From Amphiscolops sp. MND2022 (taxonomy: Eukaryota), in assembly GCA_964187785.1 (NCBI GenBank), contig OZ076409.1:15316001-15380000 (forward strand): 64,000 nt of DNA, read 5' to 3'. A model generated the notes under the pieces. The model had not been told where the DNA came from and ran no database searches. It saw nothing but the letters and a program-made list of their open reading frames with translations. Below are positions 10,289 through 64,000 of the stretch, one piece after another. A program made the translations under genes and the position numbers. Position 1 is the stretch's first letter, and every line of letters begins with the position of its first letter.

Positions 10289-10294
10289 AAAAAA
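10289..10294 (-). terminator. Pol III oligo-T terminator of 5S gene; example copy, T6-T7 after every gene
   Basis: A6-A7 run on plus strand abutting the 5S 3' end. Confidence 0.85.
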
Positions 10295-10439: not shown

Positions 10440-11691
10440 TGCTTAACAACAAAATTACGTACAATGATACGAAAATTTTCTCGGTCAAAATACGCGTAAC
10501 TTTTAAGTTAGTGCAGACTAGCTTGTTCCTTGTTCAAAAATTGGGCAGCAGACCACTTTCGCAGTCTGCTTTCAAATAAAACTTATCAATAGGGTTGGAA
10601 TACTTACCTATTTAATAAGTTTATCACAACAATCATATACATATATAAAGGGAGACCGGACAAATTCGCTGATTGGTTGAGATACGCTCGGTGATACGCG
10701 CTGCTGCACTACAGTTCAAAAGAAGTTTCCGAGATGAGCGGTGAGAAAATCTGTTTCTGACTTTCGAAATAGACGTTTCAGAATCTCCAGATCTAATCAA
10801 CTGTGGATAGCGTAGAGGTTGCGTGTTAGACTTTCAACCCAATGTCTTGAGTTCGATTCTCGCCATCGATTTTTTTTTCAAAAAAATTGTCAGCGTGAAC
10901 AGTCTTTTAAAAGCAATGGCGTTCTTCTTTTTCCTTAATGGTGCGCTTGCAACTACTGTTCAGCAAAAGATCGTGGCCTAGAGGTTGCGTTGGTTGTCAG
11001 GTTCGTCGGGTGTTATTCTGGTAGCTTTGGGTTCCATCCCCAGGATGGACATGGTTCAGCACTTGAATTGATAGTGTTATGGTTTAAACCCAACTTGATT
11101 GTTCATTTCGACACATACCGTATATAGGACTATAAGTTCGTTCATTATTTGAGTTGGGACGCTTATTTTGGAAGCGGCAAACTTTTCAACATAAAGATTT
11201 TTGGACTATTTCCAATAACGTTGTACTTTTTTTCACATCTCATCAACAGTCAATGACGTAGTGGTTGCGTGTTAGATTTCCATTCCAATGTCTTTAGTTC
11301 GATTCCCTCATTCAATTTTTTTAAAAAAACTTTGTCAGCGTGCACAGTCTTTCAAAAGCACTGGATTATTCTTTTCCCTTAGTGGTGCGCCTAAAACCAC
11401 TGTTTCGCAAGAGATCGTGGCCTAGAGGTTGCGTGGTTGTCAGGTTCGTCCGGTGTTATTCTGGTAGCTTTGGGTTCGATCCCCGGGAGGAACATTGTTC
11501 AGCTCTTAAATTGATAGTGTTATGGCTTACTTAAACCAACTTGATTGTTCATTTCGACACATTCCGTATATAGGATTATAAGTTCGTTCATTATTTGAAT
11601 TGGAACGCTTACTTTGGAAGCGGCAAAATTTTCAACATAAGGATTTTTGGACTCTTTCCAATAACGTTGTCGATTTTTTCACATCTTTTCA

Positions 11692-11760
11692 ACAGTCAAT
11701 GGCGTAGTGGTTGCGTGTTAGATTTCCATTCCAATATCTTGAGTTCGATTCCCTCAATCA
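11692..11760 (+). pseudogene. tRNA-like module 1 of the satellite monomer (example)
   Basis: A box TGGCGTAGTGG, weak anticodon-like arm ttaga-tttccat-tccaa, B box GAGTTCGATTC at tRNA spacing; no proper acceptor stem. Confidence 0.6.
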
Positions 11761-13182
11761 TAATTTTTTTTAAACTTTTGTCAGCGTGCACAGTCTTTCA
11801 AAAGCACTGGATTATTTTTTTCAATTAGTGGTGCGCCTAAAACCACTGTTTCGCAAGATATCGTGGTCTAGATGTTGCGTTGGTGGTTAGGTTTGGTATA
11901 GCGTTGCTCTGGTATCTTTGGGTTCGGTCCCCGGGGATGGAATGTTCCGCACTTGAATTGATGGAGTTTTTTTGCTTACACTTAACGTGGTTGTTTAATT
12001 CGACAAAAAGCGAATATAGCTTTCTGGATTCGCCCAAAAATTAGAATTGGAATGCTTAGTTTGGAAGCGGCAAAATTTTTCAACATAGGGATTTTTGGAC
12101 TCTTTCCAATAACGTTGTCCATTTTTTCACATCTTTTCAACAGTCAATGGCGTAGTGGTTGCGAGTTAGATTTCCTTTCCAAAGTGTTGAGGTAGTTTCC
12201 CTCTATCAAAACTTTTTCAAAAACTTAGTCAGCTTGGACAGTCTTTCAAAAGCACTGGATTATTCTTTTCCCTTAGTGGTACGCCTAAAACCACTGTTTC
12301 GCAAGATATCGTAGCCCAGAGGTTGCATTGGTGGTTAGGTTTGGTATAGCGTTGTTCTGGTATCTTTGGGTTCGTTCCCCGGGGATGGAATATGTTCCGC
12401 ACTTGAATTGATAGTTTTATTGCTTACACCCAACTTGGTTGTTTACTTCGACACATACCGAATATAGCATTCTAAATTCGTCCATAATTTGAATTGGAAT
12501 GCTTACTTTGGAAGCGGCAAATTTTCCAGCATAGGGCTTTTTGGGCTCTTTCCATTAACGTTGTCCTGTTTTTCACAGCTTTTCAACAGTCAATGGCGTA
12601 GTGTTTGCGTGTTAGATTTCCATTCCAAATTCTTGAGTTCGTTTCCCTCAATCAAAACTTTTTCAAATACTTAGTCAGCTTGGACAGTCTTTCAAAAGCA
12701 CTGGATTTTTCTTTTCCCTTAGTGGTACGCCTAAAACCACTGTTTCGCAAGATATCGTAGCCTAGAGGTTGCGTTGGTGGTTAGGTTTGGTATAGCGTTG
12801 TTCAGGTATCTTTGGGTTCGGTCCCCGGGGATGGAATTTGTTCCCACTTGAACTGATAGTGTTATTGCTTACACCCAACTTGGATGTTTAATTCGACACA
12901 TACCGAATATAGCATTCTGAATTGGAATGCTTAGTTTGGAAGCGACAAAATTTTCAACATAGGGATTTTTGAACTCTTTCCAATAACGTTGTCCATTTTT
13001 TCACATCTTTTCAACAGTCAATGGCGTAGTGGTTGCGTGTTAGATTTCCATTCCAAAGTCTTGAGTTCGTTTCCCTCAATCAAAACTTTTTCAAAAACTT
13101 AGTCAGCTTGGACAGTCTTTCAAAAGCACTGGATTATTCTTTTCCCTCAGTGGTGCGCCTAAAACGACTGTTTCGCAAGATA

Positions 13183-13262
13183 TCGTGGCCTAGAGGTTGC
13201 GTTGGTGGTTAGGTTTGGTGGAGCGTTGTTCTGGTATCTTTGGGTTCGGTCCCCGGGGATGG
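13183..13262 (+). pseudogene. tRNA-like module 2 of the satellite monomer (example)
   Basis: A-box-like TGGCCTAGAGG and B-box-like GGTTCGGTCC (GGTTCGATCC in some monomers) with longer spacing. Confidence 0.5.
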
Positions 13263-16200
13263 CACTTGTTCCTCACTTGAATTGATAGAGTTTTACTGCT
13301 TACACCCAACGTGGTTGTTCAATTCGACACATACCGAAAATAGCTTTCTGAATTCGTCCAAATTTAGAATTGGAATGCTTACTTTGGAAGCGACAAATTT
13401 TTCAACATAGGGATTTTTGAACTCTTTCCAATAACGTTGTCCATTTTTTCACATTTTTTCGACAGTCAATGGCGTAGTGGTTGCGTGTTAGATTTCCATT
13501 CCAAAGTCTTGAGTTCGTTTCCCCCAATCAGAACTTTTTCAAAAACTTAGTCAGCTTGGACAGTCTTTCAAAAGCACTGGGTTATTCTTTTCCCTCAGTG
13601 GTGCGCCTAAAACCACTGTTTCGCAAGATATCGTGGCCTAGAGGTTGCGTTGGTGGTTAGGTTTGGTGGAGCGTTGTTCTGGTATCTTTGGGTTCGGTCC
13701 CCGGGGATGGCATTTGTATCTCACTTGAATTGATAGAGTTTTACTGCTTACACCCAACGTCGTTGTTTAATTCGACACATACCGAATATGGCTTTCTGAA
13801 TTCGTCCAAAATTAGAATTGGAATGCTTACTTTGGAAGCGGCAAATTTTTCAACATAGGGATTTTTGGACTCTGTCCAATGACGTTGTCCTTTTTTCCAC
13901 ATCTTTTCAACACAGCAATGGCGTAGTGGTTGCGTGTTAGATTTCCATTCCATTGTCTTGAGTTCGTTTCTCTCAATCAAAAATTTTTTAAAAACTTAGT
14001 CAGCTTGGACAGTCTTTCAAAAGCACTGGATTATTCTACTCCCTTAGTGGTACGCCTAAAACCACTGTTTCGCAAGATATCGTAGCCTAGAGGTTACGTT
14101 GGTGGTTAGGTTTGGTATAGCGTTTTTCAGGTATCTTTGGGTTCGGTCCCCGGGGATGGAATATGTTCCCACTTGAATTGATAGTGTTATTGCTTACACA
14201 CAACTTGGATGTTTAATTCGACACATACCGAATATAGCATTCTGATTTCGTCCACAATTTGAATTGGAATGCTTAGTTTGGAAGCAACGAAATTTTCAAC
14301 ATAGGGGTTTCTGAACTCTTTCCAATAACGTTGTCCAATTTTTCACATCTTTTCAACAGTCAATGTCGTAGTGGTTGCGTGTTAGATTTCCATTCCAAAG
14401 TCTTGAGTTCGTTTCCCTCAATCAAAACTTTTTCAAAAACTTAGTCAGCTTGGACAGTCTTTCAAAAGCACTGGATTATTCTTTTCCCTCAGTGGTGCGC
14501 CTAAAACGACTGTTTCGCAAGATATCGTGGCCTAGAGGTTGCGTTGGTGGTTAGGTTTGGTGGAGCGTTGTTCTGGTATCTTTGGGTTCGGTCCCCGGGG
14601 ATGGCACTTGTTCCTCACTTGAATTGATAGAGTTTTACTGCTTACACCCAACGTGGTTGTTTAATTCGACACATATCGATTATAGCTTTCTGAATTCGTC
14701 CAAATTTAGAATTGGAATGCTTACTTTGGAAGCGACAAAATTTTCAACATAGGGATTTTTGAACTCTTTCCAATAACGTTGTCCATTTTTTCACATCTTT
14801 TCGACAGTCAATGGCGTAGTGGTTGCGTGTTAGATTTCCATTCCAATGTCTTGAGTTCGATTCCATCAATCAAAACTTTTTCAAAAACTTAGTCAGCTTG
14901 GACAGTCTTTCAAAAGCATTGGATTATTCTTTTTCCTCAGTGGTGCGCCTAAAACGACTGTTTCGCAAGATATCGTGGTCTAGAGGTTGCGTTGGTGGTT
15001 AGGTTTGATGGAGCGTTGTTCTGGTATCTTTGGGTTCGGTCCCCGGGGATAGCATTTGTTCCTCACTTGAATTGATAGAGTTTTACTGCTTACACCCAAC
15101 GTGGTTGTTCAATTCGACACATACCGAAAATAGCTTTCTGAATTCGTCCAAATTTAGAATTGGAATGCTTACTTTGGAAGCGACAAATTTTTCAACATAG
15201 GGATTTTTGAACTCTTTCCAATAACGTTGTCCATTTTTTCAGCTTTTTTCGACAGTCAATGGCGTAGTGGTTGCGTGTTAGATTTCCATTCCAAAGTCTT
15301 GAGTTCGTTTCCCCCAATCAGAACTTTTTCAAAAACTTAGTCAGCTTGGACAGTCTTTCAAAAGCACTGGGTTATTCTTTTCCCTCAGTGGTGCGCCTAA
15401 AACCACTGTTTCGCAAGATATCGTGGCCTAGAGGTTGCGTTGGTGGTTAGGTTTGGTGGAGCGTTGTTCTGGTATCTTTGGGTTCGGTCCCCGGGGATGG
15501 CATTTGTATCTCACTTGAATTGATAGAGTTTTACTGCTTACACCCAACGTCGTTGTTTAATTCGACACATACCGAATATGGCTTTCTGAATTCGTCCAAA
15601 ATTAGAATTGGAATGCTTACTTTGGAAGCGGCAAATTTTTCAACATAGGGATTTTTGGACTCTGTCCAATGACGTTGTCCTTTTTTCCACATCTTTTCAA
15701 CACAGCAATGGCGTAGTGGTTGCGTGTTAGATTTCCATTCCATTGTCTTGAGTTCGTTTCTCTCAATCAAAAATTTTTTAAAAACTTAGTCAGCTTGGAC
15801 AGTCTTTCAAAAGCACTGGATTATTCTACTCCCTTAGTGGTACGCCTAAAACCACTGTTTCGCAAGATATCGTAGCCTAGAGGTTGCGTTGGTGGTTAGG
15901 TTTGGTATAGCGTTTTTCAGGTATCTTTGGGTTCGGTCCCCGGGGATGGAATATGTTCCCACTTGAATTGATAGTGTTATTGCTTACACACAACTTGGAT
16001 GTTTAATTCGACACATACCGAATATAGCATTCTGATTTCGTCCACAATTTGAATTGGAATGCTTAGTTTGGAAGCAACGAAAATTTCAACATAGGGATTT
16101 TTGAACTCTTTCCAATAACGTTGTCCTTTTTTTCACATCTTTTCAACAGTCAATGGCGTAGTGGTTGCGTGTTAGATTTCCATTCCAAAGTCTTGAGTTC

Positions 16201-19064
16201 GTTTCCCTCAATCAAAATTTTTTCAAAAACTTAGTCAGCTTGGACAGTCTTTCAAAAGCACTGAATTATTCTTTTCCATCAGTGGTGCGCCTAAAACCAC
16301 TGTTTCGCAAGATATCGTGGCCTAGAGGTTGCGTTGGTGGTTAGGTTTGGTGGAGCGTTGTTCTGGTATCTTTGGGTTCGGTCCCCGGGGATAGCATTTG
16401 TTCCTCACTTGAATTGATAGAGTTTTACTGCTTACACCCAACGTGGTTGTTCAATTCGACACATACCGAAAATAGCTTTCTGAATTCGTCCAAATTTAGA
16501 ATTGGAATGCTTACTTTGGAAGCGACAAATTTTTCAACATAGGGATTTTTGAACTCTTTCCAATAACGTTGTCCATTTTTTCAGCTTTTTTCGACAGTCA
16601 ATGGCGTAGTGGTTGCGTGTTAGATTTCCATTCCAAAGTCTTGAGTTCGTTTCCCCCAATCAGAACTTTTTCAAAAACTTAGTCAGCTTGGACAGTCTTT
16701 CAAAAGCACTGGGTTATTCTTTTCCCTCAGTGGTGCGCCTAAAACCACTGTTTCGCAAGATATCGTAGCCTAGAGGTTGCGTTGGTGGTTAGGTTTGGTA
16801 TAGCGTTTTTCAGGTATCTTTGGGTTCGGTCCCCGGGGATGGAATATGTTCCCACTTGAATTGATAGTGTTATTGCTTACACACAACTTGGATGTTTAAT
16901 TCGACACATACCGAATATAGCATTCTGATTTCGTCCACAATTTGAATTGGAATGCTTAGTTTGGAAGCAACGAAAATTTCAACATAGGGATTTTTGAACT
17001 CTTTCCAATAACGTTGTCCATTTTTTCACATCTTTTCAACAGTCAATGGCGTAGTGGTTGCGTGTTAGATTTCCATTCCAAAGTCTTGAGTTCGTTTCCC
17101 TCAATCAAAATTTTTTCAAAAACTTAGTCAGCTTGGACAGTCTTTCAAAAGCACTGAATTATTCTTTTCCATCAGTGGTGCGCCTAAAACCACTGTTTCG
17201 CAAGATATCGTGGCCTAGAGGTTGCGTTGGTGGTTAGGTTTGGTGGAGCGTTGTTCTGGTATCTTTGGGTTCGGTCCCCGGGGATGGCATTTGTTCCTCA
17301 CTTGAATTGATAGAATTTTACTGCTTACACCCAACGTAGTTGTTTAATTCGACACATAACGAATATAGCTTTCTGAATTCGTCCAAAATTAGAATTGGAA
17401 TGCTTTTTTTGGAAGCGGCAACTTTTTCAACATAGGGATTTTTGGACTCTGTCCAATAATGTTGTCCATTTTTTCACATCTTTTCAACAGGCAATGGAGT
17501 AGTGGTTGCGTGTTAGATTTCCATTCCAATGTCTTGAGTTCGATTCCCTCAATCAAAAATTTTAAAAAAAATTTGTCAGCGTGGAAAGTCTTTCGAAAGC
17601 ACTGGAATATTCTTTTACCTTAGTGGTGCGCATAAAACCGCTGTTTCGCAAGATATCGTTGCCTAGAGGTTGCGTTGGTGGTTAGGTTTGGTATAGCGTT
17701 GTTCTGGTATCTTTGGGTTCGGTCCCTGGGGAAGGAATATGTCCCGCACTTGAATTCATAGTGTTATTTCTTACACCCAACTTGGTTGTTCACTTCGACA
17801 AATACCGAATATAGCATTCTGTATTCGTCCATAATTTGAATTGGAATGCTTAGTTTGGAAGCGGCGAAATTTTCAACATAGGGATTTTTGGACTCTTTCC
17901 AATAACGTTGTCCATTTTTTCACATCTTTTCAACAGTCAATGGCGTAGTGGTTGCGTGTTAGATTTCCATTCCAATGTCTTGAGTTATATTCACTCAATC
18001 ATAATTTTTTTTAAAAACTTTGTCAGCGTGCACAGTCTTTTAAAAGAACTGGATTTTTCTTTTCCCTTAGTGGTGCGCCTAAAACCAATGTTTCGCAAGA
18101 TATTGTGACCTAGAGGTTGCGTGGTGGTCAGGTTCGCTCGTGTGTTATTTTGGTACATTTAGGTTCGATTCCCGGGATGGACTTGGATACGCACTTGATT
18201 TGATAGTTTGGTTTTGCTTTCACCCAATTTGGTTGTTCCACACGTCAAGACTCTAAGTGCTTTTATAAACCAAAATCCATGTGCTTTTGGGAAAAAGTAC
18301 GTCCACTATCGCGGAGTTTTAATCAACAACCGATAGCGTAGAGGTTGCGTATCAGATTCTCATTCCAATGTCTAGCGTTCGATCCCCTATATCGATTTGT
18401 TTTTCAAACTTTGAACAATGAACAGTCTTTCAAAAGCACTGAATTTTTCTTTTTTCTCAGTGGTGAGCTAAATGCCACTGTTTCGCAAGATATCGTGGCC
18501 TAAAATTATTTACGTTGGTGGATTGGATCGTTAGAGTTCTTATGTGTTTGTTGTCTAGCTTTGTCTTTTTCGAAGCGCTCTGAAGGAATAGTTAAGATCT
18601 TACAGGCCTTTGAAATCCATGACCTGGGTGTTTTCAGGGGAGATGTCCACCATCATCAACCGATAGCGTAGAGGTTACGTACTAGCCTCTCATTTCAATG
18701 TCTTGAGTTCGATTCTCTCTAGCAACTTTGTTTTTCAAACTTCTCTTTCCCTCATCCAATGGTAAGTCCACTATCACATAGCTGCAACCAACAGTGGATG
18801 GTGAAGAGGTCGTGTACTAGGCTCTCATAACAACTGCTTGAGTTCGAAACCCTCAATCAACTTTTTTTTCGCAGAATGTCATCGTGCTTCTGGAACATTG
18901 TCTGCAAAGTTAAACCACGTTTTTTGACAAAGTCAATAAAGTCCACGAAATCAAGTGCAGACATTCAGTCAACATTCCATAGAAGGCAGAAACAATTTCA
19001 AAGTTCGTGGTAGTTTGAGATTTTTTCCAATGCAGTTATACATTCGTTTCCATTAAATAGGATC

Positions 19065-21985
19065 CTCAATCAAAACTTTTTTAAAGACGTTGTCAGCGTG
19101 GACAGTCTTTCAAAAGCACTGGATTATTCTTTTCCCTCAGTGGTGCGCCTAAAACCGCTGTTTCGCAAGATATCGTGGCCTAGAGGTTGCGTTGGTGGTT
19201 AGGTTTGGTGGAGCGTTGTTCTGGTATCTTTGGGTTCGGTCCCCGGGGATGGCATTTGTTCCTCACTTGAATTGATAGAGTTTTACTGCTTACACCCAAC
19301 GTGGTTGTTTAATTCGACACATACCGAATATAGCTTTCTGAATTCGTCCAAAATTAGAATTGGAATGCTTACTTTGGAAGCGGCAAATTTTTTAACATAG
19401 GAATTTTTGGACTCTGTCCAATAACGTTGTCCATTTTTTCACATCTTTTCAACAGTCAATGGCGTAGTGGTTACGTGTTAGATTTCCATTCCAAAGTCTT
19501 GAGTTCGTTTCCCTCAATCAAAATTTTTTCAAAAAATTAGTCAGCTTGGACAGTCTTTCAAAAGCACTGGATTATTCTTTTCCCTCAGTGGTGCGCCTAA
19601 AACCATTGTTTTGCAAGATATCGTGGCCTAGAGGTTGCGTTGGTGGTTAGGTTTGGTGGAGCGTTGTTCTGGTATCTTTGGGTTCGGTCCCCGGGGATGG
19701 CATTTGTTCCTCACTTGATTTGATAGAGTTTTACTGCTTACACCCAACGTGGTTGTTTAATTCGACACATACCGAATATAGCTTTCTGAAGTCGTCCAAA
19801 ACTGAAAATGAAATGCTTACTTTGGAAGCGGCAAATTTTTCAACATAGGGATTTTTGGATTCTTTCCAATCACATTGTCCCTTTTTTCACATCTTTTCAA
19901 CAGTCAATGGCGTAGTGGTTGCGTGTTAGATTTCCATTTTAATGTCTTGAGTTCGATTCCCTCAATCAAAACTTTTTTAAAAACGTTGTCAGCGTGGACA
20001 GTTTTTCAGAAGCACTGGATTATTCTTTTCCCTTAGTGGTGCGCCTTAAACCACTGTTTCGCAAGATATCGTAGCCTAGAGGTTGCGTTGGGATTAGGTT
20101 TGGTATAGCGTTGTTCTGGTATTTTGGGTTCCGTCCCCGGGGATGGAATTTGTTCCGCACTTGAATTGATAGAGTGTTATTGCTTACACCCAACGTGGTT
20201 GTTTAATTCGACACATACCGAATATAGCTTTCTGATTTCGTCCAAAGTTTTAATTAGAATGCATACTTTGGAAGTGGCAAATTTTTCAACATAGGGAATT
20301 TTGGACTCTTTCCATTCACATTGTCCCTTTTTTCACATCTTTTCAACAGTCAATGGCGTAGTGGTTGCGTGTTAGATTTCCATTTCAATGTCTTGAGTTC
20401 GATTCCCTCAATCAAAACTTTTTAAAAACGTTGTCAGCGTGGACAGTTTTTCAGAAGCACTGGATTATTCTTTTCCCTTAGTGGTGCGCCTTAAACCTTT
20501 GTTTCGCAAGATATCGTAGCCTAGAGGTTGCGTTTGGATTAGGTTTGGTATAGAGTTGTTCTGGTATTTTGGGTTCCGTCCCCGGGGATGGAATTTGTTC
20601 CGCACTTGAATTGATAGAGTGTTATTGCTTACACCCAACTTGGATGTTTTATTCGACACATACCGAATATAGCTTTCTGAATTCGTCCAAAATTAGAATT
20701 GGAATGCTTACTTTGGAAGCGGCAAATTTTTCAACATAGGGATTTTTGGACTCTGTCCAAAAACATTGTCCATTTTTTCACATCTTTTCAACAGGCAATG
20801 GAATAGTGGTTGCGTGTTAGATTTCCATTCCAATGTCTTGAGTTCGATTCCCTCAATCAAAACTTTTTAAAAAACTTAGTCAGCGTGGAAAGTCTTTAGA
20901 AAGCACTGGAATATTCTTTGCCCTTAGTGGTGCGCATAAAACCACTGTTTCGCAAGATATCGTGGCCTAGAGGTTGCGTTGGTGGTTAGGTTTGGTATAG
21001 CGTTGTTCTGGTATCTTGGGTTCGGTCCCCGGGGATGGAATTTGTTCCGCACTTGAATTGATAGAGTGTTATTGCTTACACCCAACGTGGTTGTTTAATT
21101 CGACACATACCGAATATAGCTTTCTGAAGTCGTCCAAAACTGAAAATGAAATGCTTACTTTGGAAGCGGCAAATTTTTCAACATAGGGATTTTTGGATTC
21201 TTTCCAATCACATTGTCCCTTTTTTCACATCTTTTCAACAGTCAATGGCGTAGTGGTTGCGTGTTAGATTTCCATTTTAATGTCTTGAGTTCGATTCCCT
21301 CAATCAAAACTTTTTTAAAAACGTTGTCAGCGTGGACAGTTTTTCAGAAGCACTGGATTATTCTTTTCCCTTAGTGGTGCGCCTTAAACCACTGTTTCGC
21401 AAGATATCGTAGCCTAGAGGTTGCGTTGGGATTAGGTTTGGTATAGCGTTGTTCTGGTATTTTGGGTTCCGTCCCCGGGGATGGAATTTGTTCCGCACTT
21501 GAATTGATAGAGTGTTATTGCTTACACCCAACGTGGTTGTTTAATTCGACACATACCGAACATAGTTTTCTGAATTCGTCCAATTTTTGAATTGGAAAGC
21601 TTACTTTGGAAGCGGCAAAAATTTCAACATAGGGATTTTTGGACTCTTTCCAATAACGTTGTACATTTTTTCACGTCTTTTCAACAGTCCATGGCGTAGT
21701 GGTTGCGTGTTAGATTTCCATTCCAATGTCTTGAGTTCGATTCCATCAATCAAAACTTTTCAAACAACGTTGTCAGCGTGGACAGTCTTTCGAAGGCACT
21801 GGAGTATTCTTTTCTCTTAGTGGTGCGCCTAAAACCACTGTTTCGCAAGATATTGTGGCCTAGAGGTTGCGTGGTGGTCAGGTTCGTTCGGGTGTTATTT
21901 CGGTACATTTGGGTTCGATTCCCTGGATGGACTTGGATACGCACTTGAGTTGATAGTTTGGTTTTGCTTCCACCCAAATTGGTTG
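19065..21985 (+). repeat. ~446-bp satellite, array B of element 1 (~6-7 monomers)
   Basis: Same monomer resumes after an ~820-bp interruption. Confidence 0.9.
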
Positions 21986-25746: not shown

Positions 25747-25775
25747 GCCGCCGGAGGCGGCAGCGGGTTTGCTAG
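25747..25775 (+). other. Helitron 3' terminal hairpin and CTAG
   Basis: 6-bp GC stem GCCGCC/GGCGGC with 3-nt loop, 10 nt before CTAG; in element 2 the difference falls in the loop. Confidence 0.85.
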
Positions 25776-51789: not shown

Positions 51790-54700
51790 TCAACTGTGGA
51801 TAGCGTAGAGGTTGCGTGTTAGACTTTCAACCCAATGTCTTGAGTTCGATTCCCGCCATCGATCTTTTTTTTCAAAAAAATTGTCAGCGTGAACAGTCTT
51901 TTAAAAGCAATGGCGTTCTTCTTTTTCCTCAATGGTGCGCTTGCAACTACTGTTCAGCAAGAGATCGTGGCCTAGAGGTTGCGTGGTTGTCAGGTTCGTC
52001 GGGTGTTATTCTGGTAGCTTTGGGTTCGATCCCCGGGAGGAACATTGTTCAGCTCTTAAATTGATAGTGTTATGGCTTAAACCCAACTTGATTGTTCATT
52101 TCGACACATTACCAAAATAGGATTATAAGTTCGTTCAATATTTGAATTGGAACGCTTACTTTGGAATCGGCAAATTTTTCAACATAAGGATTTTTGGACT
52201 CTTTCCAATAACGTTGTCGATTTTTTCACATCTTTTCAACAGTCAATGACGTAGTGGTTGCGTGTTAGATTTCCATTCCAATATCTTGAGTTCGATTCCC
52301 TCAATCATATTTTTTTTAAATTTTTGTCAGCGTGCACAGTCTTTCAAAAGCACTGGATTATTCTTTTCAATTAGTGGTGCGCCTAAACCACTGTTTCGCA
52401 AGATATCGTGGTCTAGATGTTGCGTTGGTGGTTAGGTTTGGTATAGCGTTGCTCTGGTATCTTTGGGTTCGGTCCCCGGGGATGGAATTTGTTCCGCACT
52501 TGAATTGATGGAGTTTTTTTGATTACACCTAACGTGGTTGTTTAATTCGACAAAAACCGAATATAGCTTTCTGAATTCGCCCAAAAATTAGAATTGGAAT
52601 GCTTAGTTTGGAAGCGGCAAATTTTTTCAACGTAGGGATTTTTGGACTCTTTCCAATAACGTGGTACATTTTTCACGTCTTTTCAACAGTCAATGGCGTA
52701 GTGGTTGCGTGTTTAATTTCCATTCCAATGTCTTGAGTTCGATTCCCTCAACCAGAACTTTTTCAAAAACGTTGTCAGCGTGGACAGTTTTTCAGAAGCA
52801 CTGCATTATTCTTTTCCCTTAGTGGTGCGCCTAAAACTACTGTTTTGCAAGATATCGTGGCCTAGAGGTTGCGTTGGTGGTTAGGTTTGGTATAGCGTTG
52901 TTCTGGTACCTTTGGGTTCGGTCCCCGTGATGGAATTTGTTCCGCACTTGAATTGATAGAGTTTTATTGCTTACACCCAACGTGGTTGTTTAATTTGACA
53001 CATACCGAATACAGCTTTCTGAATTCGTCCAAATTTAGAATTGGAATGCTTAGTTTGGAAGCGGCAAAATGTTTCAACATAAGGATTTTTGGACTCTTTC
53101 CAATAACGTTGTCCATTTTTTCACATCTTTTCATCAGTCAATGGCGTAGTGGTTGCGAGTTAGATTTCCATTCCAAAGTCTTGCGGTCGTTTCCCTCTAT
53201 CAAAACTTTTTCAAAAACTTAGTCAGCTTGGACAGTCTTTCAAAAGCACTGTATTATTCTTTTCCCTTAGTGGTACGCCTAAAACCACTGTTTCGCAAGA
53301 TATTGTATCCTAGAGGTTGCGTTGGTGGTTAGGTTTGGTATAGCGTTGTTCTGGTATCTTTGGGTTCGGTCCCCGAGGATGGAATATGTACCGCACTTGA
53401 ATTGATAGTGTTATTGCTTACACCCAACTTGGTTGTTGGCTTCGACACATACCGAACATAGCATTCTGAATTCGTCCAGAATTTGAACTGGAATGCTTAG
53501 TTTGGAAACGGCAAAATTTTCAACATAGGGATTTTTGGACTCTTTCCAATAACGTTGTCCATTTTTTCACATCTTTTCAACAGTCAATGGCGTAGTGATT
53601 GCGTGTTAGATTTCCATTCCAATGTCTTGAGTTCGTTTCTCTCAATCAAAACTTTTTTAAAAAACTTAGTCAGCTTGGACAATCTTTCAAAAGCACTGGA
53701 TTATACTACTCCCTTAATGGTACGCCTAAAACCACTGTTTCGCAAGATATCGTAGCCTAGAGGTTGCGTTGGTGGTTAGGTTTGGTATAGCGTTGTTCAG
53801 GTATCTTTGGGTTCGGTCCCCGGGGATGGAATATGTTCCCACTTGAACTGATAGTGTTATTGCTTACACCCAACTTGGATGTTTAATTCGACACATACCG
53901 AATATAGCATTCTGAATTGGAATGCTTAGTTTGGAAGCGACAAAATTTTCAACATAGGGATTTTTGAACTCTTTCCAATAACGTTGTCCATTTTTTCACA
54001 TCTTTTCAACAGTCAATGGCGTCGTGGTTGCGTGTTAGATTTCCATTCCAAAGTCTTGAGTTCGTTTCCCTCAATCAAAACTTTTTCAAAAACTTAGTCA
54101 GCTTGGACAGTCTTTCAAAAGCACTGGATTATTCTTTTCCCTCAGTGGTGCGCCTAAAACGACTGTTTCGCAAGATATCGTGGCCTAGAGGTTGCGTTGG
54201 TGGTTAGGTTTGGTGGAGCGTTGTTCTGGTATCATTGGGTTCGGTCCCCGGGGATGGCATTTGTTCCTCACTTGAATTGATAGAGTTTTACTGCTTACAC
54301 CCAACGTGGTTGTTTATTTCGACACATACCGAATATAGCTTTCTGAATTCGTCCAAATTTAGAATTGGAATGCTTATTTTGGAAGCGACAAAATTTTCAA
54401 CATAGGGATTTTTGAACTCTTTCCAATAACGTTGTCCATTTTTTCACATCTTTTCGACAGTCAATGGCGTAGTGGTTGCGTGTTAGGTTTCCATTCCAAT
54501 GTCTTGAGTTCGATTCCATCAATCAAAACTTTTTCAAAAACTTAGTCAGCTTGGACAGTCTTTCAAAAGCACTGGATTATTCTTTTTCCTCAGTGGTGCG
54601 CCTAAAACGACTGTTTCGCAAGATATCGTGGTCTAGAGGTTGCGTTGGTGGTTAAGTTTGGTGGAGCGTTGTTCTGGTATCTTTGGGTTCGGTCCCCGGG

Positions 54701-57700
54701 GATGGCATTTGTTCCTCACTTGAATTGATAGAGTTTTACTGCTTACACCCAACGTGGTTGTTTAATTCGACACATACCGAATATAGCTTTCTGAATTCGT
54801 CCAAATTTAGAATTGGAATGCTTACTTTGGAAGCGACAAATTTTTCAACATAGGGATTTTTGAACTCTTTCCAATAACGTTGTCCATTTTTTCACATTTT
54901 TTCGACAGTCAATGGCGTAGTGGTTGCGTGTTAGATTTCCATTCCATTGTCTTGAGTTCGTTTCTCTCAATCAAAAATTTTTCAAAAACTTAGTCAGCTT
55001 GGACAGTTTTTCAAAAGCACTGGATTATTCTTTTCCCTCAGTGGTGCGCCTAAAACCACTGTTTCGCAAGATATCGTGGCCTAGAGGTTGCGTTGGTGGT
55101 TAGGTTTGGTGGAGCGTTGTTCAGGTATCTTTGGGTTCGGTCCCCGGGGATGGAATATGTTCCCACTTGAATTGATAGTGTTATTGCTTACACCCAACTT
55201 GGAGGTTTAATTCGACACATACCGAATATAGCATTCTGAATTCGTCCACAATTTGAAATGGAATGCTTAGGTTGGAAGCAACAAAATTTTCAACATAGGG
55301 ATTTTTGAACTCTTTCCAATAACGTTGTCCATTTTTTCACATCTTTTCAACAGTCAATGGCGTAGTGGTTGCGTGTTAGATTTCCATTCCAAAGTCTTGA
55401 GTTCGTTTCCCTCAATCAAAATTTTTTCAAAAACTTAGTCAGCTTGGACAGTCTTTCAAAAGCACTGGATTATTCTTTTCCCTCAGTGGTGCGCCTAAAA
55501 CCACTGTTTCGCAAGATATCGTGGCCTAGAGGTTGCGTTGGTGGTTAGGTTTGGTGGAGCGTTGTTCTGGTATCTTTGGGTTCGGTCCCCGGAAATGGCA
55601 TTTGTTCCTCACTTGAATTGATAGAGTTTTACTGCTTACACCCAACGTGGTTGTTTAATTCGACACATACCGAATATAGCTTTCTGAATTCGTCCAAAAT
55701 TAGAATTGGAATGCTTACTTTGGAAGCGACAAATTTTTCAACATAGGGATTTTTGAACTCTTTCCAATAACGTTGTCCATTTTTTCACATTTTTTCGACA
55801 GTCAATGGCGTAGTGGTTGCGTGTTAGATTTCCATTCCATTGTCTTGAGTTCGTTTCTCTCAATCAAAAATTTTTCAAAAACTTAGTCAGCTTGGACATT
55901 TTTTCAAAAGCACTGGATTATTCTTTTCCCTCAGTGGTGCGCCTAAAACCACTGTTTCGCAAGATATCGTGGCCTAGAGGTTGCGTTGGTGGTTAGGTTT
56001 GGTGGAGCGTTGTTCAGGTATCTTTGGGTTCGGTCCCCGGGGATGGAATATGTTCCCACTTGAATTGATAGTGTTATTGCTTACACCCAACTTGGAGGTT
56101 TAATTCGACACATACCGAATATAGCATTCTGAATTCGTCCACAATTTGAATTGGAATGCTTAGTTTGGAAGCAACAAAATTTTCAACATAGGGATTTTTG
56201 AACTCTTTCCAATAACGTTGTCCATTTTTTCACATCTTTTTAACAGTCAATGGCGTAGTGGTTGCGTGTTAGATTTCCATTCCAAAGTCTTGAGTTCGTT
56301 TCCCTCAATCAAATTTTTTTCAAAAACTTAGTCAGCTTGGACAGTCTTTCAAAAGCACTGTATTATTCTTTTCCCTTAGTGGTACGCCTAAAACCACTGT
56401 TTCGCAAGATATTGTATCCTAGAGGTTGCGTTGGTGGTTAGGTTTGGTATAGCGTTGTTCTGGTATCTTTGGGTTCGGTCCCCGAGGATGGAATATGTAC
56501 CGCACTTGAACTGATAGTGTTATTGCTTACACCCAACTTGGTTGTTGGCTTCGACACATACCGAACATAGCATTCTGAATTCGTCCAGAATTTGAACTGG
56601 AATGCTTAGTTTGGAAACGGCAAAATTTTCAACATAGGGATTTTTGGACTCTTTCCAATAACGTTGTCCATTTTTTCACATCTTTTCAACAGTCAATGGC
56701 GTAGTGATTGCGTGTTGGATTTCCATTCCAATGTCTTGAGTTCGTTTCTCTCAATCAAAACTTTTTTAAAAAACTTAGTCAGCTTGGACAATCTTTCAAA
56801 AGCACTGGATTATACTACTCCCTTAATGGTACGCCTAAAACCACTGTTTCGCAAGATATCGTAGCCTAGAGGTTGCGTTGGTGGTTAGGTTTGGTATAGC
56901 GTTGTTCAGGTATCTTTGGGTTCGGTCCCCGGGGATGGAATATGTTCCCACTTGAACTGATAGTGTTATTGCTTACACCCAACTTGGATGTTTAATTCGA
57001 CACATACCGAATATAGCATTCTGAATTGGAATGCTTAATTTGGAAGCGACAAAATTTTCAACATAGGGATTTTTGAACTCTTTCCAATAACGTTGTCCAA
57101 TTTTTCACATCTTTTCAACAGTCAATGGCGTCGTGGTTGCGTGTTAGATTTCCATTCCAAAGTCTTGAGTTCGTTTCCCTCAATCAAAACTTTTTCAAAA
57201 ACTTAGTCAGCTTGGACAGTCTTTCAAAAGCACTGGATTATTCTTTTACCTCAGTGGTGCGCCTAAAACGACTGTTTCGCAAGATATCGTGGCCTAGAGG
57301 TTGCGTTGGTGGTTAGGTTTGGTGGAGCGTTGTTCTGGTATCATTGGGTTCGGTCCCCGGGGATGGCATTTGTTCCTCACTTGAATTGATAGAGTTTTAC
57401 TGCTTACACCCAACGTGGTTGTTTATTTCGACACATATCGAATATAGCTTTCTGAATTCGTCCAAATTTAGAATTGGAATGCTTACTTTGGAAGCGACAA
57501 AATTTTCAACATAGGGATTTTTGAACTCTTTCCAATAACGTTGTCCATTTTTTCACATCTTTTCGACAGTCAATGGCGTAGTGGTTGCGTGTTAGATTTC
57601 CATTCCAATGTCTTGAGTTCGATTCCATCAATCAAAACATTTTCAAAAACTTAGTCAGCTTGGACAGTCTTTCAAAAGCACTGGATTAATCTTTTTCCTC

Positions 57701-59660
57701 AGTGGTGCGCCTAAAACGACTGTTTCGCAAGATATCGTGGTCTAGAGGTTGCGTTGGTGGTTAAGTTTGGTGGAGCGTTGTTCTGGTATCTTTGGGTTCG
57801 GTCCCCGGGGATGGCATTTGTTCCTCACTTGAATTGATAGAGTTTTACTGCTTACACCCAACGTGGTTGTTTAATTCGACACATACCGAATATAGCTTTC
57901 TGAATTCGTCCAAATTTAGAATTGGAATGCTTACTTTGGAAGCGACAAATTTTTCAACATAGGGATTTTTGAACTCTTTCCAATAACGTTGTCCATTTTT
58001 TCACATTTTTTCGACAGTCAATGGCGTAGTGGTTGCGTGTTAGATTTCCATTCCATTGTCTTGAGTTCGTTTCTCTCAATCAAAAATTTTTCAAAAACTT
58101 AGTCAGCTTGGACAGTTTTTCAAAAGCACTGGATTATTCTTTTCCCTCAGTGGTGCGCCTAAAACCACTGTTTCGCAAGATATCGTGGCCTAGAGGTTGC
58201 GTTGGTGGTTAGGTTTGGTGGAGCGTTGTTCAGGTATCTTTGGGTTCGGTCCCCGGGGATGGAATATGTTCCCACTTGAATTGATAGTGTTATTGCTTAC
58301 ACCCAACTTGGAGGTTTAATTCGACACATACCGAATATAGCATTCTGAATTCGTCCACAATTTGAATTGGAATGCTTAGTTTGGAAGCAACAAAATTTTC
58401 AACATAGGGATTTTTGAACTCTTTCCAATAACGTTGTCCATTTTTTCCACATCTTTTCAACAGTCAATGGCGTAGTGGTTGCGTGTTAGATTTCCATTCC
58501 AAAGTCTTGAGATCGTTTCGCTCAATCAAAATTTTTTCAAAAACTTAGTCAGCTTGGACAGTCTTTCAAAAGCACTGGATTATTCTTTTCCCTCAGTGGT
58601 GCGCCTAAAACCACTGTTTCGCAAGATATCGTGGCCTAGAGGTTGCGTTGGTGGTTAGGTTTGGTGGAGCGTTGTTCTGGTATCTTTGGGTTCGGTCCCC
58701 GGAGATGGCATTTGTTCCTCACTTGAATTGATAGAGTTTTACTGCTTACACCCAACGTGGTTGTTTAATTCGACACATACCGAATATAGCTTTCTGAATT
58801 CGTCCAAAATTAGAATTGGAATGCTTACTTTGGAAGCGGCAACTTTTTCAACATAGGGATTTTTGGACTCTGTCCAATAATGTTGTCCATTTTTTCACAT
58901 CTTTTCAACAGGCAATGGAGTAGTGGTTGCGTGTTAGATTTCCATTCCAATGTCTTGAGTTCGATTCCCTCAATCAAAATTTTTTTTTAAAAATTGTCAG
59001 CGCGGAAAGTCTTTCGAAAGCACTGAAATATTCTTTTCCCTTAGTGGTGCGCATAAAACCACTGTTTCGCAAGATATCGTGGCCTATAGGTTGCGTTGGT
59101 GGTTAGGTTTGGTATAGCGTTGTTCTGGTATCTTTGGGTTCGGTCCCTGGGGAAGGAATATGTTCCGCACTTGAATTCATAGTGTTATTTCTTACACCCA
59201 ACTTGGTTGTTCACTTCGACAAATACCGAATATAGCATTCTGTATTCGTCCATAATTTGAATTGGAATGCTTAGTTTGGAAGCGGCGAAATTTTCAACAT
59301 AGGGATTTTTGGACTCTTTCCAATAACGTTGTCCATTTTTTCACATCCCTTCAACAGTCAATGGCGTAGTGGTTGCGTGTTAGATTTCCATTCCAATGTC
59401 TTGAGTTATATTCACTCAACCATAATTTTTAAAAAAAACTTTGTCAGCGTGCACAGTCTTTCAAAAGAACTGGATTATTCTTTTCCCTTAGTGGTGCGCC
59501 TAAAACCACTGTTTCGCAAGATATTGTGACCTAGAGGTTGCGTGGTGGTCAGGTTCGCTCGTGTGTTATTTTGGTACAATTGGGTTCGATTCCCGGGATG
59601 GACTTGGATACGCACTTGATTTGATAGTTTGGTTTTGCTTTCACCCAATTTGGTTGTTCC
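51790..59660 (+). repeat. ~446-bp satellite, array A of element 3 (~17-18 monomers)
   Basis: Same monomer in continuous tandem. Confidence 0.93.
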
Positions 59661-60484
59661 ACACGTCAAGACTCTAAGTGCTTTTATAAACCAAAATCCA
59701 TGTGCTTTTGGGAAAAAGTACGTCCACTATCACGGAGTTTTAATCAAAAACCGATAGCGTAGAGGTTGCGTATCAGATTCTCATTCCAATGTCTAGAGTT
59801 CGATCCCCTATATCGATTTGTTTTTCAAACTTTGAACAATGAACAGTCTTTCAAAAGCACTGAATTTTTCTTTTCCCACAGTGGTGAGCTAAATGCCTTT
59901 GTTTCGCAAGATATCGTGGCCTAAAATTATTTACGTTGGTGGATAGGATCGTTAGAGTTCTTATGTGTTTGTTGTCTAGCTTTGTCTTTTTCGAAGCGCT
60001 CTGAAGGAATAGTTAAGATCTTACAGGCCTTTGAAATCCATGACCTGGGTGTTTTCAGGGGAGATGTCCACCATCATCAACCGATAGCGTAGAGGTTACG
60101 TACTAGCCTCTCATTTCAAAGGTCTTGAGTTCGATTCTCTCTAGCAACTTTGTTTTTCAAACTTCTCTTTCCCTCATCCAATGGTAAGTCCACTATCACA
60201 TAGCTGCAACCAACAGTGGATGGTGAAGAGGTCGTGTACTAGGCACTCATAACAACTGCTTGAGTTCGAAACCCTCAATCAACTTTTTTTCGCAGAATGT
60301 CATCGTGATTCTGGAACATTGTCTGCAAAGTTAAACCACGTTTTTTGACAAAGTCGATAAAGTCCACGAAATCAAGTGCAGACATTCAGTCAACATTCCA
60401 TAGAAGGCAGAAACAATTTCAAAGTTCGTGGTAGTTTGAGATTTTTTCCAATGCAGTTATACATTCGTTTCCATTAAATAGGAT

Positions 60485-63400
60485 CCTCAATCAAAACTTT
60501 TTTAAAAACGTTGTCAGCGTGGACAGTCTTTCAAAAGCACTGGATTATTCTTTTCCCTCAGTGGTGCGCCTAAAACCGCTGTTTCGCAAGATATCGTGGC
60601 CTAGAGGTTGCGTTGGTGGTTAGGTTTGGTGGAGCGTTGTTCTGTTATCTTTGGGTTCGGTCCCCGGGGATGGCATTTGTTCATCACTTGAATTGATAGA
60701 GTTTTATGGCTTACACCCAACGTGGTTGTTTAATTCGACACATACCGAATATAGCTTTCTGAATTCGTCCAAAATTAGAATTGGAATGCTTACTTTGGAA
60801 GCGGCAAATTTTTCAGGGATTTTTGGACTCTGTCCAATAACGTTGTCCATTTTTTCACATTTTTTCAACAGGCAATGGAGTAGTGGTTGCGTGTTAGATT
60901 TCCATTCCAATGTCTTGAGTTCGTTTCCCTCAATCAATCTTTTTAAAAAAATTTAGTCAGCGTGGAAAGTCTTTCGAAAGCACTGGAATATTCTTTTCCC
61001 TTAGTGGTGCGCATAAAACCACTGTTTCGCAAGATATCGTGGCCTAGAGGTTGCGTTGGTGGTTAGGTTTGGTGTAGCGTTTTTCAGGTATCTTTGGGTT
61101 CGGTCCCCAGGGATGGAATATGTTCCCAGTTGAATTGATAGTGTTATTGCTTACACCCAACTTGGATGTTTAATTCGACACATACCGAATGTAGCATTCT
61201 GAATTCGTCCACAATTGGAATTGGATTGCTTAATTTGGAAGCAACAAAACTTTCACATAGGGATTTTTGAACTCTTTCCAATAATGTTGTCCAATTTTTC
61301 ACATCTTTTCAACAGTCAATGGCGTAGTGGTTACGTGTTAGATTTCCATTCCAAAGTCTTGAGTTCGTTTCCCTCAATCAAAATTTTTTCAAAAACTTAG
61401 TCAGCTTGGACAGTCTTTCAAAAGCACTGGATTATTCTTTTCCCTCAGTGGTGCGCCTAAAACCGCTGTTTCGCAAGATATCGTGGCCTAGAGGTTGCGT
61501 TGGTGGTTAGGTTTGGTGGAGCGTTGTTCTGGTATCTTTGGGTTCGGTCCCGGGGGATGGCATTTGTTCCTCACTTGAATTGATAGAGTTTTACTGCTTA
61601 CACCCAACGTGGTTGTTTAATTCGACACATACCGAATATAACTTTCTGAATTCGTCTAAAATTAGAATTGGAATGCTTACTTTGGAAGCGGCAAATTTTT
61701 CGAAATAGGGATTTTTGGACTCTGTCCAATAACGTTGTCCATTTTTTCACATCTTTTCAACAGGCAATGGTGTAGTGGTTGCGTGTTAGATTTCCATTTC
61801 AATGTCTTGAGTTCGATTCCCTCAATCAAATTTTTTTCAAAAACTTAGTCAGCTTGGACAGTCTTTCAAAAGCCCTGGATTATTCTTTTCCCTCAGTGGT
61901 GCGCCTAAAACCACTGTTTTGCAAGATATCGTGGCCTAGAGGTTGCGTTGGTGGTTAGGTTTGGTATGGCGTTGTTCTGGTATCTTTGGGTTCGGTCCCC
62001 GGGGATTGAATTTGTTCCGCACTTGACGTGATAGAGTGTTATTGCTTACACCCAACGTGGTTGTTTAATTCGACACATACCGAATATAGCTTTCTGAATT
62101 CGTCCAACAATAGAATTGGAATGCTTACTTTAGAAGGGGCAAATTTTTCAACATAGGGATTTTTGGACTTTTTCCAATAACGTTGTCCCTTTTTTCACAT
62201 CTTTTCAACAGTCAATGGCGTAGTGGTTGCGTGTTAGATTTCCATTTCAATGTCTTGAGTTCGATTCCCTCAATCAAAATTTTTTCAAAAACTTAGTCAG
62301 CTTGGACAGTCTTTCAAAAGCCCTGGATTATTCTTTTTCCTCAGTGGTGCGCCTAAAACCACTGTTTCGCAAGATATCGTGGCCTAGAGGTTGCGTTGGT
62401 GGTTAGGTTTGGTGTAACGTTTTTCAGGTATATTTGGGTTCGGTCCCCGGGGATGGAATATGTTCCCAGTTGAATTGATAGTGTTATTACTTACACCCAA
62501 CTTGGATGTTTAATTCGACACATACCGAATGTAGCATTCTGAATTCGTCCACAATTGGAATTGGATTGCTTAATTTGGAAGCAACAAAACTTTCACATAG
62601 GGATTTTTGAACTCTTTCCAATAACGTTGTCCATTTTTTCACATCTTTTCAACAGTCAATGGCGTAGTGGTTACGTGTTAGATTTCCATTCCAAAGTCTT
62701 GAGTTCGTTTCCCTTAATCAAAATTTTTTCAAAAACTTAGTCAGCTTGGACAGTCTTTCAAAAGCACTGGATTTTTCTTTTCCCTCAGCGGTGCGCCTAA
62801 AACCGCTGTTTCGCAAGATATCGTGGCCTAGAGGTTGCGTTGGTGGTTAGGTTTGGTGGAGCGTTGTTCTGGTATCTTTGGGTTCGGTCCCCGGGGATGG
62901 CATTTGTTCCTCACTTGATTTGATAGAGTTTTACTGCTTACACCCAACGTGGTTGTTTAATTCGACACATACCGAATATAGCTTTCTGAATTCGTCCAAA
63001 ATTAGAATTGGAATGCTTACTTTGGAAGCCGCAAATTTTCCAAAATAGGAATTTTTGGACTCTGTCCAATAACGTTGTCCATTTTTTCACATCTTTTCAA
63101 CAGGCAATGGTGTAGTGGTTGCGTGTTAGATTTCCATTTCATTGTCTTGAGTTCGATTCCCTCAATCAAAATTTTTTCAAAAACTTAGTCAACTTGGACA
63201 GTCTTTCAAAAGCCCTGGATTATTCTTTTCCCTCAGTGGTGCGCCTAAAACCACTGTTTTGCAAGATATCGTGGCCTAGAGGTTGCGTTGGTGGTTAGGT
63301 TCGGTATAGCGTTGTTCTGGTATCTTGGGTTCGATCCCCGGGGATTGAATTTGTTCCGCACTTGACGTGATAGAGTGTTATTGCTTACACCCAACGTGGT

Positions 63401-64000
63401 TGTTTAATTCGACACATACCGAATATAGCTTTCTGATATCGTCCAAAACTGAAATTGAAATGCTTACTTTGGAAGCGGCAAATTTTTCAACGTAGGGATT
63501 TTTGGATTCTTTCCAATCACATTGTCCCTTTTTTCACATCTTTTCAACAGTCAATGGCGTAGTGGTTGCGTGTTAGATTTCCATTTCAATGTCTTGAGTT
63601 CGATTCCCTCAATCAAAACTTTTTTAAAAACGTTGTCAGCGTGGACAGTTTTTCAGAAGCACTGGATTATTATTTTCCCTTAGTGGTGCGCCTTAAACCT
63701 TTGTTTCGCAAGATATCGTAGCCTAGAGGTTGCGTTGGGATTAGGTTTGGTATAGCATTGTTCTGGTATTTTGGGTTCCGTCCCCGGGGATGCAATTTGT
63801 TCCGCACTTGAATTGATAGAGTGTTATTGCTTACACCCAACTTGGATGTTTAATTCGACACATACCGAATATAGCTTTCTGAATTCGTCAAAATTAGAAT
63901 TGGAATGCTTACTTTGGAAGCGGCGAATTTTTCAACATAGGGCTTTTTGGACTCTGTCCAATAACGTTGTCCATTTTTTAACATATTTTCAACAGGCAAT
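60485..64000 (+). repeat. ~446-bp satellite, array B of element 3 (~8 monomers, runs off window)
   Basis: Same monomer after the interruption. Confidence 0.9.

Follow-up and report, generated by a model that had tools for sequence, protein, structure and literature searches.

Rolling-circle DNA transposons of the Helraiser/HLE1 type begin with TC, end with a hairpin followed by CTRR, insert between an A and a T, encode a Rep-Pif1 protein, and have non-autonomous copies that share their termini (PMC4778049, PMC11417382; here and below, sources are cited for their available sections). Helraiser inserts at AT sites throughout the genome, of which 1,751 have been mapped (PMC4778049), whereas the family described here, for which we use a 64,000-nucleotide stretch of Amphiscolops sp. 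MND2022 as the starting point (the window; contig C1 15316001-15380000 of a 1.07-Gb assembly), occupies one nucleotide position of one multicopy gene. By its sequence this gene is that for spliced-leader (SL) RNA, in arrays in which it is linked to the 5S rRNA gene. The transposase gene of the present family is also split by introns, unlike that of Helraiser. We regard it as highly probable that this is a real Helitron family, and that it is new by its strict targeting of SL RNA genes.

Several other systems are alike in part. NeSL and SLACS/CRE also insert into the SL exon of the multicopy SL RNA gene, but they are RNA-mediated and use a reverse transcriptase and a restriction-like endonuclease, whereas the present family moves as rolling-circle DNA with an HUH nuclease and makes no duplication (PMC4640811, PMC8869645). 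Dada, Pokey and CryptonV are DNA transposons with multicopy RNA genes or repeats as safe harbours (PMC8869645), but Dada and Pokey have DDE transposases (Dada with a 6–7-bp duplication) and CryptonV a tyrosine recombinase, as opposed to the HUH RepHel protein found here. IS91, IS200/IS605 and the Replitrons (PMC10288648) have HUH nucleases and oriented insertion at a motif, usually without duplication, although their targets are of 2–4 nt and they lack a Pif1 helicase, whereas the present family uses a unique gene position. Satellite-bearing Helitrons are common, and DINE-TR1 and the oyster satellite Helitrons/Helentrons have conserved ends and expanding internal tandem arrays (PMC12628747); these elements are dispersed, whereas the arrays of the present family are confined to targeted copies and have a tRNA-like monomer. 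The target-specific DNA transposons of eukaryotes listed in the available sections of a 2022 survey (PMC8869645) are Pokey, CryptonV and Dada, with no HUH transposon or Helitron and no SL target among them, and SL exons are given there as targets of non-LTR (long terminal repeat) elements; the available sections of a 2026 review treat Helitrons without mention of targeting (PMC13565253). No target-specific Helitron was found in the literature searched, Repbase Reports, subscription journals and supplements lying outside its scope.

Helitrons in the window and their target site

Three elements stand in the window where an initial annotation of this DNA had placed them, and their TC starts, hairpin-CTAG ends and A|T insertion without target-site duplication were verified. 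The filled left junction, CACAACAA|TC, occurs at three positions, with elements starting at 10633, 27554 and 51626, and the right junction, CTAG|TTAGGCT, at two, with ends at 25775 and 48915; neither is found on the other strand. The empty form of the target, CACAACAATTAGGCT, occurs eight times in the window and not once on the opposite strand, and comparison of filled with empty sites places the insertion between A and T with no target duplication. Elements 1 and 2 are 15,143 and 21,362 bp in length, and element 3 (14,272 bp) closes 1,897 bp past the window with an identical hairpin-CTAG|ttaggct junction. A 6-bp GC stem (4-bp in one old copy) lies 14 nt ahead of the 3′ end, and the bulk of each element is a satellite of roughly 448 bp. 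Because no transposase frame is present among the 26 stop-to-stop frames of at least 100 amino acids (aa) in the window, all three elements are classed as non-autonomous. Their features are as follows.

10633..25775, + strand: element 1, non-autonomous Helitron, from 5′ TC to 3′ hairpin-CTAG
27554..48915, + strand: element 2, non-autonomous Helitron
51626..64000, continuing past the window, + strand: element 3, non-autonomous Helitron, without the unique tail of elements 1 and 2
10633..10780, + strand: 5′ terminal region common to autonomous and non-autonomous copies (19 genome-wide matches)
25747..25775, + strand: GC hairpin with CTAG at the 3′ end of element 1 (48887-48915 in element 2)
10810..21992, + strand: ~448-bp satellite arrays of element 1 (10810-18237 and 19064-21992)
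27731..45158, + strand: satellite arrays of element 2 (27731-43184 and 44018-45158)
51803..64000, + strand: satellite arrays of element 3 (51803-59658 and 60485-64000)

The target reads as the exon of an SL RNA gene linked to 5S, not as anonymous 5S spacer, the name given to it in the initial annotation. On the minus strand, an exon of 32 nt is followed in the array unit by a GTAAGT donor, then by a strong stem-loop and a predicted Sm site (fold z −2.1), and lastly by the 5S gene. With the target named in this way the nearest parallels also change, from 5S-targeting elements to the SL-targeting retrotransposons NeSL and SLACS/CRE. Linkage of SL to 5S genes occurs in other animals. The exon has 31 nt identical to a trans-splicing leader reported from an acoel flatworm (PMC9911081), which makes an acoel host very likely, and the Sm site lies 65 nt after the exon, slightly beyond the default spacing of 20–60 for a site of the form AT(4-6)G (PMC7986045). 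The insertion point is between nt 7 and 8 of the exon, with the Helitron antisense to the SL gene, and each insertion parts the promoter and 7 nt from the remainder of the gene. The genome-wide Rfam count of 5S genes, for which 47 of 27,535 candidates were scored, is a minimum and was not used.

9704..9735, − strand: intact 32-nt SL exon (empty target) with GTAAGT donor after it (others at 26655-26686, 49794-49825 and 50697-50728)
9630..9638, − strand: predicted Sm-binding site in the SL RNA gene, preceded by a strong stem-loop
10608..10632, − strand: 3′ part (25 nt) of the SL exon that element 1 interrupts (also 27529-27553 and 51601-51625)
25776..25782, − strand: 5′ part (7 nt) of the SL exon that element 1 interrupts, on the promoter side (also 48916-48922)
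10294..10412, − strand: 5S rRNA gene, with its start 221 bp away from the site of insertion
1764, 4306, 6848, 9390, 10294, 26341, 27245, 49480, 50383 and 51287, − strand: the ten 5S genes of the window

Distribution of the family in the genome

Copies were catalogued across the whole assembly by DNA searches, which give lower bounds. The 148-bp 5′ terminus has 19 matches (all 19 candidates scored), on contigs C1, C2, C12, C13 and C917, and 16 of these begin TCAT immediately after cacaacaa. The other three, all at SL sites, are two duplications internal to copies and one 5′-deleted copy joined to the SL exon; the 17 matches of a 5′ 28-mer with up to three mismatches each fall within the same 19. 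At the other end, the 3′ hairpin pattern has 17 matches, of which 16 end CTAG before ttaggct (12 exact, 4 with one substitution) and continue into the promoter-side flank, the 17th being joined to the same spacer by a deletion. Wherever an end is intact (16 of 16 at the 5′ end, 16 of 16 at the 3′ end), it lies at one A|T, in one orientation and with no duplication; copies with both ends paired span 6 to 37 kb. The 904-bp array unit contains 65 AT dinucleotides per strand, only one of which is used, and orientation is constant despite the palindromic AATT core. Reversed-pattern controls gave no match genome-wide and, together with the use of a single AT among 65 per strand, argue that the junction pattern is not due to chance.

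A satellite 19-mer has 198 genome-wide matches, all of them within the 656 kb of catalogued regions, and the catalogue is therefore probably complete for this assembly. No match to termini or satellite lies outside the 5S-SL arrays in these genome-wide DNA searches. Tabulating the flanks of both termini, as the initial annotation had proposed, places every intact end at the same position of the SL exon, and the scatter over unrelated AT sites that it considered fatal to targeting is not seen anywhere in the assembly.

The family has the HLE1 features defined in PMC11417382: a TC 5′ end, a 3′ hairpin-CTAG (CTRR), A|T insertion without duplication, a RepHel protein, and termini common to autonomous and non-autonomous copies. 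Two other assignments were considered and rejected. HLE2 (Helentron/Helitron2) calls for T|T insertion and terminal inverted repeats, in place of which there are A|T insertion and TC/CTAG ends; Dada calls for a DDE transposase and its 6–7-bp duplication, in place of which there is RepHel without duplication.

Three copies depart in structure. The autonomous element at C1:15446913 is a partial dimer of 37 kb: a 5′ copy breaks off early in the RepHel gene, where a word similar to the 5′ terminus stands, and is succeeded by another 5′ end, a structure like the arrays of multiple 5′ ends and a single 3′ end of plant Helitrons. C917:23035-36682 is a chimera of an autonomous-type 5′ part and a non-autonomous 3′ part, produced by recombination or mis-assembly. 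The most diverged copy (C2:5014167, with a 5′ end 22–26% off) still begins at an SL site; LTR-retrotransposon-like sequence lies 17 bp upstream, and the copy has lost its 3′ end to a deletion that runs into the next empty site.

The autonomous partner

A genome search with PF14214 gave 152 matches over many contigs, with three loci inside 5S-SL arrays. These three copies, which provide the RepHel-encoding element that the initial annotation suggested looking for, are 98.8–99.3% identical across 7.9 kb; a fourth, on C13, retains the last 2.2 kb, and the next closest RepHel family in the genome has 48% identity. The C1 copy has nine core exons and eight GT-AG introns of 61–186 nt, giving a spliced frame of 1,420 codons with no stop, in a model of the core with splice sites set by hand. 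The exons match PF14214 (Rep), PIF1/PF05970 and Pif1_2B, and the protein aligns with Helraiser at E 1e-45 with the HUH and YxxxY tyrosine motif in register; it also has similarity to plant and insect Pif1-like proteins. Autonomous and non-autonomous copies are 6–8% apart over their first 280 bp and have a hairpin-CTAG identical in kind, and the identification of the elements as Helitrons holds on these RepHel-coding copies and on the termini common to 16 copies per end.

Elsewhere, including C1:73.4-76.5 Mb, there is a cluster of open frames of ~2,375 aa with a weak PF14214 match, a second and apparently young Helitron-like family concentrated in one region.

Independent insertions

Element-to-element and flank-to-flank divergence, a comparison also proposed in the initial annotation, proved incongruent and favours separate insertions. 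Among 16 copies, element ends were compared with 285 bp of flank. Element 1 is 1.0% from the C917 copy over 2,050 bp whereas the flanks are 10.9% apart, element 2 is 1.4% from a C12 copy with flanks 10.6% apart, and the autonomous copies on C1, C12 and C13 are 0.9–1.4% apart in flanks differing by 6.7–12.0% (one pair, 0.93% against 12.0%). The reverse is seen when elements 1 and 2 are each set against the C1 autonomous copy, from which they are 18–20% apart in the last 600 bp but only 0.7–1.4% in flank. In approximately unbiased (AU) tests the element and flank trees are each rejected on the other alignment (p 7e-91 and 1e-59), the alignments being short and some branches weakly supported, and element and flank distances are not correlated in a Mantel test of the 16 copies (rho 0.13, p 0.13).

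The flanks themselves point the same way. Young copies bear the local spacer type of the adjoining empty units, including the array-diagnostic bases +16 and +20. Between old copies and the empty units next to them, 15–24 of 285 bases (~8%) are different, so the flanks beside elements are not kept homogenised, and this disfavours the long residence with homogenised flanks that the initial annotation had offered as one reading.

On C1 and C13, two autonomous-type copies each lie within the duplication on the promoter side of a short retroelement, a different one in each case (described below). These nested copies have only ~12 bp of left flank in common with plain units, one of them is identical over its first 280 bp to a copy in a plain unit, and Helitron-free siblings exist for both contexts. 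Arrival of the retroelement after the Helitron would not be expected to produce this arrangement, given the way target-primed reverse transcription proceeds. Near-identical copies are found in different spacer types and on different chromosomes. Elements 1% apart in flanks 11–12% apart, the conflict of trees, and copies in two retroelement duplications together support independent insertions and reject a single insertion followed by amplification. Of the two options that the initial annotation left standing, targeting by independent insertion survives, and amplification of one insertion with the array falls with the incongruence of the trees.

Target recognition and a proposed mechanism

The 17-mer around the site has 2,357 exact copies genome-wide. 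Promoter-side AAAA is present at 1,276, and the other 1,081 are dispersed relics, promoter-less copies of the duplication, and variants. All 16 intact 3′ junctions lie on promoter-side sites (p 5e-5 if independent, 0.007 if there were 8 events), and none of the 1,081 copies lacking this flank is used, which argues that recognition needs the promoter side. The two nested copies show that the exon from nt 19 on, the intron and the 5S gene downstream are not required. In our best reading, an HLE1-type family has very probably integrated repeatedly and target-specifically into the SL genes of 5S-SL arrays.

By analogy with Helraiser biochemistry, RepHel would peel one strand off the donor, stop at the hairpin-CTAG and circularise the strand, and the circle would then be joined into a single-stranded target at A|T; the non-autonomous, satellite-bloated copies would be moved in trans. 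The start site of an active SL gene could supply transiently melted DNA, in which RepHel would read local sequence, including the promoter-side flank, that fixes nucleotide and strand. This combination of a melted start site and sequence reading has about an even chance of being the basis of the specificity, and is favoured because Helraiser cleaves only single-stranded DNA, prefers AT in AT-rich DNA, and has 7.3-fold enrichment in the promoters of genes with high expression (PMC4778049). Also within the targeting reading, sequence reading on its own is an unlikely basis, and nicks from a retroelement endonuclease or a DNA guide are, even taken jointly, quite improbable. Each insertion would sever one SL gene from its promoter, which would be cheap with more than 1,200 sites and follow the safe-haven logic of NeSL, SLACS and Dada.

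IS608 chooses its target by guide pairing. One lead in this direction is a 13/16 match to the SL exon near the element 5′ end (element positions 37-52), the highest-scoring SL 18-mer match within the initial 120 bp (p 0.024 against 2,000 shuffles, uncorrected), which is kept as a lead only and overlaps what we take to be a CCAAT-like word. There is little likelihood that this SL-like word acts as an IS608-like DNA guide, or that the tRNA-like satellite tethers elements to 5S-SL arrays rich in RNA polymerase III. On a broader scale, we lean towards a long-lived RepHel lineage that has evolved strict gene-level targeting, placing a cargo of 6–37 kb near the start of SL RNA genes, at one nucleotide, on one strand and with no duplication.

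Alternative explanations

Several observations weigh against repeated targeted integration as set out above. First, the evidence consists of an assembly, in which tandem arrays can collapse, and C917 is a 62-kb unplaced contig that may repeat the C12 haplotype. Secondly, subfamilies run parallel on C1 and C12 in pairs ~1% apart, which array-to-array exchange could also yield; with the chimeric C917 copy, they show that recombination acts on the family too. Thirdly, no RepHel copy in the assembly appears clearly competent, although the family was recently intact: at the position of Helraiser Y727 the uninterrupted C1 copy has His, both C12 copies have Tyr with one indel each, and in Helraiser each tyrosine is required for transposition in cells (PMC4778049). 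Among the exons tested, none revealed a dedicated targeting domain; the first core exon had no Pfam family and only Helitron-like neighbours in the Atlas. The strand joined would be the SL template strand, although start sites are generally taken to expose the other one, and a simple exposed-strand model fits this poorly. Finally, a search for a second species with the exact SL-plus-TC 21-mer gave two metagenome matches, neither a Helitron junction: one is an SL-variant-headed LINE-like ORF1 (first open reading frame of a long interspersed element) and the other a chance match in an mRNA.

The alternative that survives best, though we rate it as improbable, is a homing-like process in which a break at an empty SL site, made for example by an L1-like endonuclease, is repaired from a Helitron-filled unit with no targeting by RepHel. 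It would account for an insertion point inside the 17 bp that L1-like elements duplicate, a target that filled sites lose, and it draws on the same recurrent subfamilies and recombining chimera. Against it, two copies have only ~12 bp of left homology with any donor, no donor-type bases are present at +16/+20 beside young junctions, and the 1,420-codon spliced frame has been kept open while the family ends diverged by 6–26%, which points to selection for transposition.

Very unlikely is an ordinary AT-inserting Helitron that lands widely and survives, or is assembled, only in the arrays, with a local chromatin hotspot. The preference of Helraiser for active promoters and AT-rich DNA (PMC4778049) and the lower-bound nature of DNA searches lend it something, but each unit offers 130 strand-specific AT sites, of which 1 is used, with constant orientation at a palindromic core, and termini and satellite are confined to the arrays while the other RepHel families, a control judged by position only, are scattered. 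This explanation is largely refuted in this assembly.

Amplification of one ancient insertion with the 5S-SL array, the flanks being homogenised, has less still to recommend it: tandem arrays do evolve in concert, and the window holds four near-identical 2,542-bp retroelement-filled units, but it is at odds with the incongruent trees and unhomogenised old flanks, and the copies inside two retroelement duplications refute it unless 12-bp microhomology recombination produced both. An artefact of assembling repetitive arrays is hardly credible, since in spite of 200-N gaps near several copies they differ by many substitutions and in structure, have canonical junctions at both ends, and include a largest RepHel exon that is 100% matched by a public-record protein (which may not be independent of this assembly).

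Retroelements at the same exon

Many array units in the regions inspected hold insertions flanked by a 17-bp duplication of SL nt 1–17. These comprise copies of 5.1–6.0 kb, several with two long frames (749 and 1,092 aa in one C13 copy), and short copies of 1.4–2.0 kb, with at least seven different 5′ ends.

C1, C12, C13 and C917 arrays: retroelements with the 17-bp SL duplication (e.g. L112:5229-9672, C13:13186506-13192327 and window 2110-3729)
2110..3729, − strand: non-autonomous, retroelement-like insertion of 1,620 bp following SL nt 17, with a worn 17-mer on one side and an exact one on the other
4652-6271, 7194-8813 and 1-1187 (partial), − strand: repeats of the 1,620-bp insertion

One of the full-length copies matches RVT_1 and, in its N-terminal region, L1 ORF2p beginning at residue 9 (E 5e-51), and it has a weak Exo_endo_phos match, below the cut-off, in a scan of the copy up to its C-terminal part. 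The long copy is thus a putative L1-like element with an apurinic/apyrimidinic endonuclease (APE), possibly Tx1-like. SL-specific elements in the literature use a restriction-like endonuclease (NeSL, PMC4640811), and APE-type retroelements at the SL exon are possibly a new finding in their own right. The 2,542-bp units at the window start are 904-bp units with the 1,620-bp short copy and the 17-bp duplication, a separate insertion at this exon that the initial annotation had overlooked. This insertion has no tblastn match at 1e-3 to the full-length L1-like copies, and its class is assigned from the duplication, the 3′ end and a CCHC-like frame.

At C1:15421498-15427478 and C1:16242148-16243595 short retroelements stand in tandem with no 5S gene between them, each bounded by the 17-mer, as would follow from repeated insertion at a regenerated target or from unequal exchange.

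Satellite and tail sequences

The satellite monomer has two tRNA-like A-box/B-box pairs and matches the Rfam tRNA model at up to 24.6 bits, against a cut-off of 29 bits. The possibility that these are real tRNA genes was rejected, as ARAGORN found none and the Rfam matches are sub-threshold only. Among monomers less than 80% identical, the four boxes are 84–92% conserved against an average of 75%, and other 11-mers are equally conserved.

24008..24920, + strand: two diverged copies (80% and 72%) of spacer repeats in the tail of element 1, in flank orientation

The source of these tail repeats is the spacer between the SL promoter and the 5S 3′ end, and the tails of young, old and autonomous copies all carry spacer-repeat copies of 70–80% identity in flank orientation. 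This fits an ancient read-through capture, as described for Helraiser (PMC4778049), and long residence at 5S-SL arrays, with copying in either direction.

Variation in the arrays and dispersed leader copies

At least three spacer types, 6–12% apart, are partitioned among the arrays of C1, C12 and C13, and the SL exon and 5S gene are nearly invariant. In the window, 10015-10290 contains a twice-repeated spacer motif with a 15-nt inverted copy of a 5S segment near box A, and ~75 bp of the motif resembles the end of the satellite monomer (76–78%). Of the filled sites, 4 of 16 have a substitution in the 7 SL bases to the right of the junction, compared with 6 of 116 empty ones (Fisher p 0.02), which could reflect relaxed selection or error-prone joining.

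At the 16 dispersed 17-mer loci inspected (the first on C1), a leader of ~32 nt is bounded sharply where the 17-mer stands and continues on its other side into unrelated sequence, often a reading frame; this type makes up 20 of the first 100 listed 17-mers. On C1 such SL relics head LINE ORF1-like frames (with what we take to be PHD-like and coiled-coil regions) or host genes, as retrocopies of trans-spliced RNAs, and this suggests that there are trans-spliced LINEs. There are also probable SL variants, leaders that have the first 17 nt in common and differ in the last 15; those 17 nt are the ones duplicated by the retroelements.

Implications

Helitrons have been regarded as needing little beyond an AT pair. 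If the interpretation given here is true, this would be the first case of a eukaryotic rolling-circle transposon with strict target specificity, and also the first of a DNA transposon directed at SL genes, and the choice of a single-stranded target by a transposase would become testable. The 2,357 natural copies of the 17-mer, with or without the promoter flank, are a ready mutational series, and the transposase can be compared with that of an untargeted RepHel family of the same genome. The family may integrate tens of kilobases, and would be a natural basis for developing an HUH integrase with site specificity and large cargo. The safe-harbour strategy of R2, NeSL, Dada and Pokey would be extended to HUH transposons, and DNA and RNA elements would have converged on the SL exon within one genome, where this exon is shared with several APE-type retrotransposon families.

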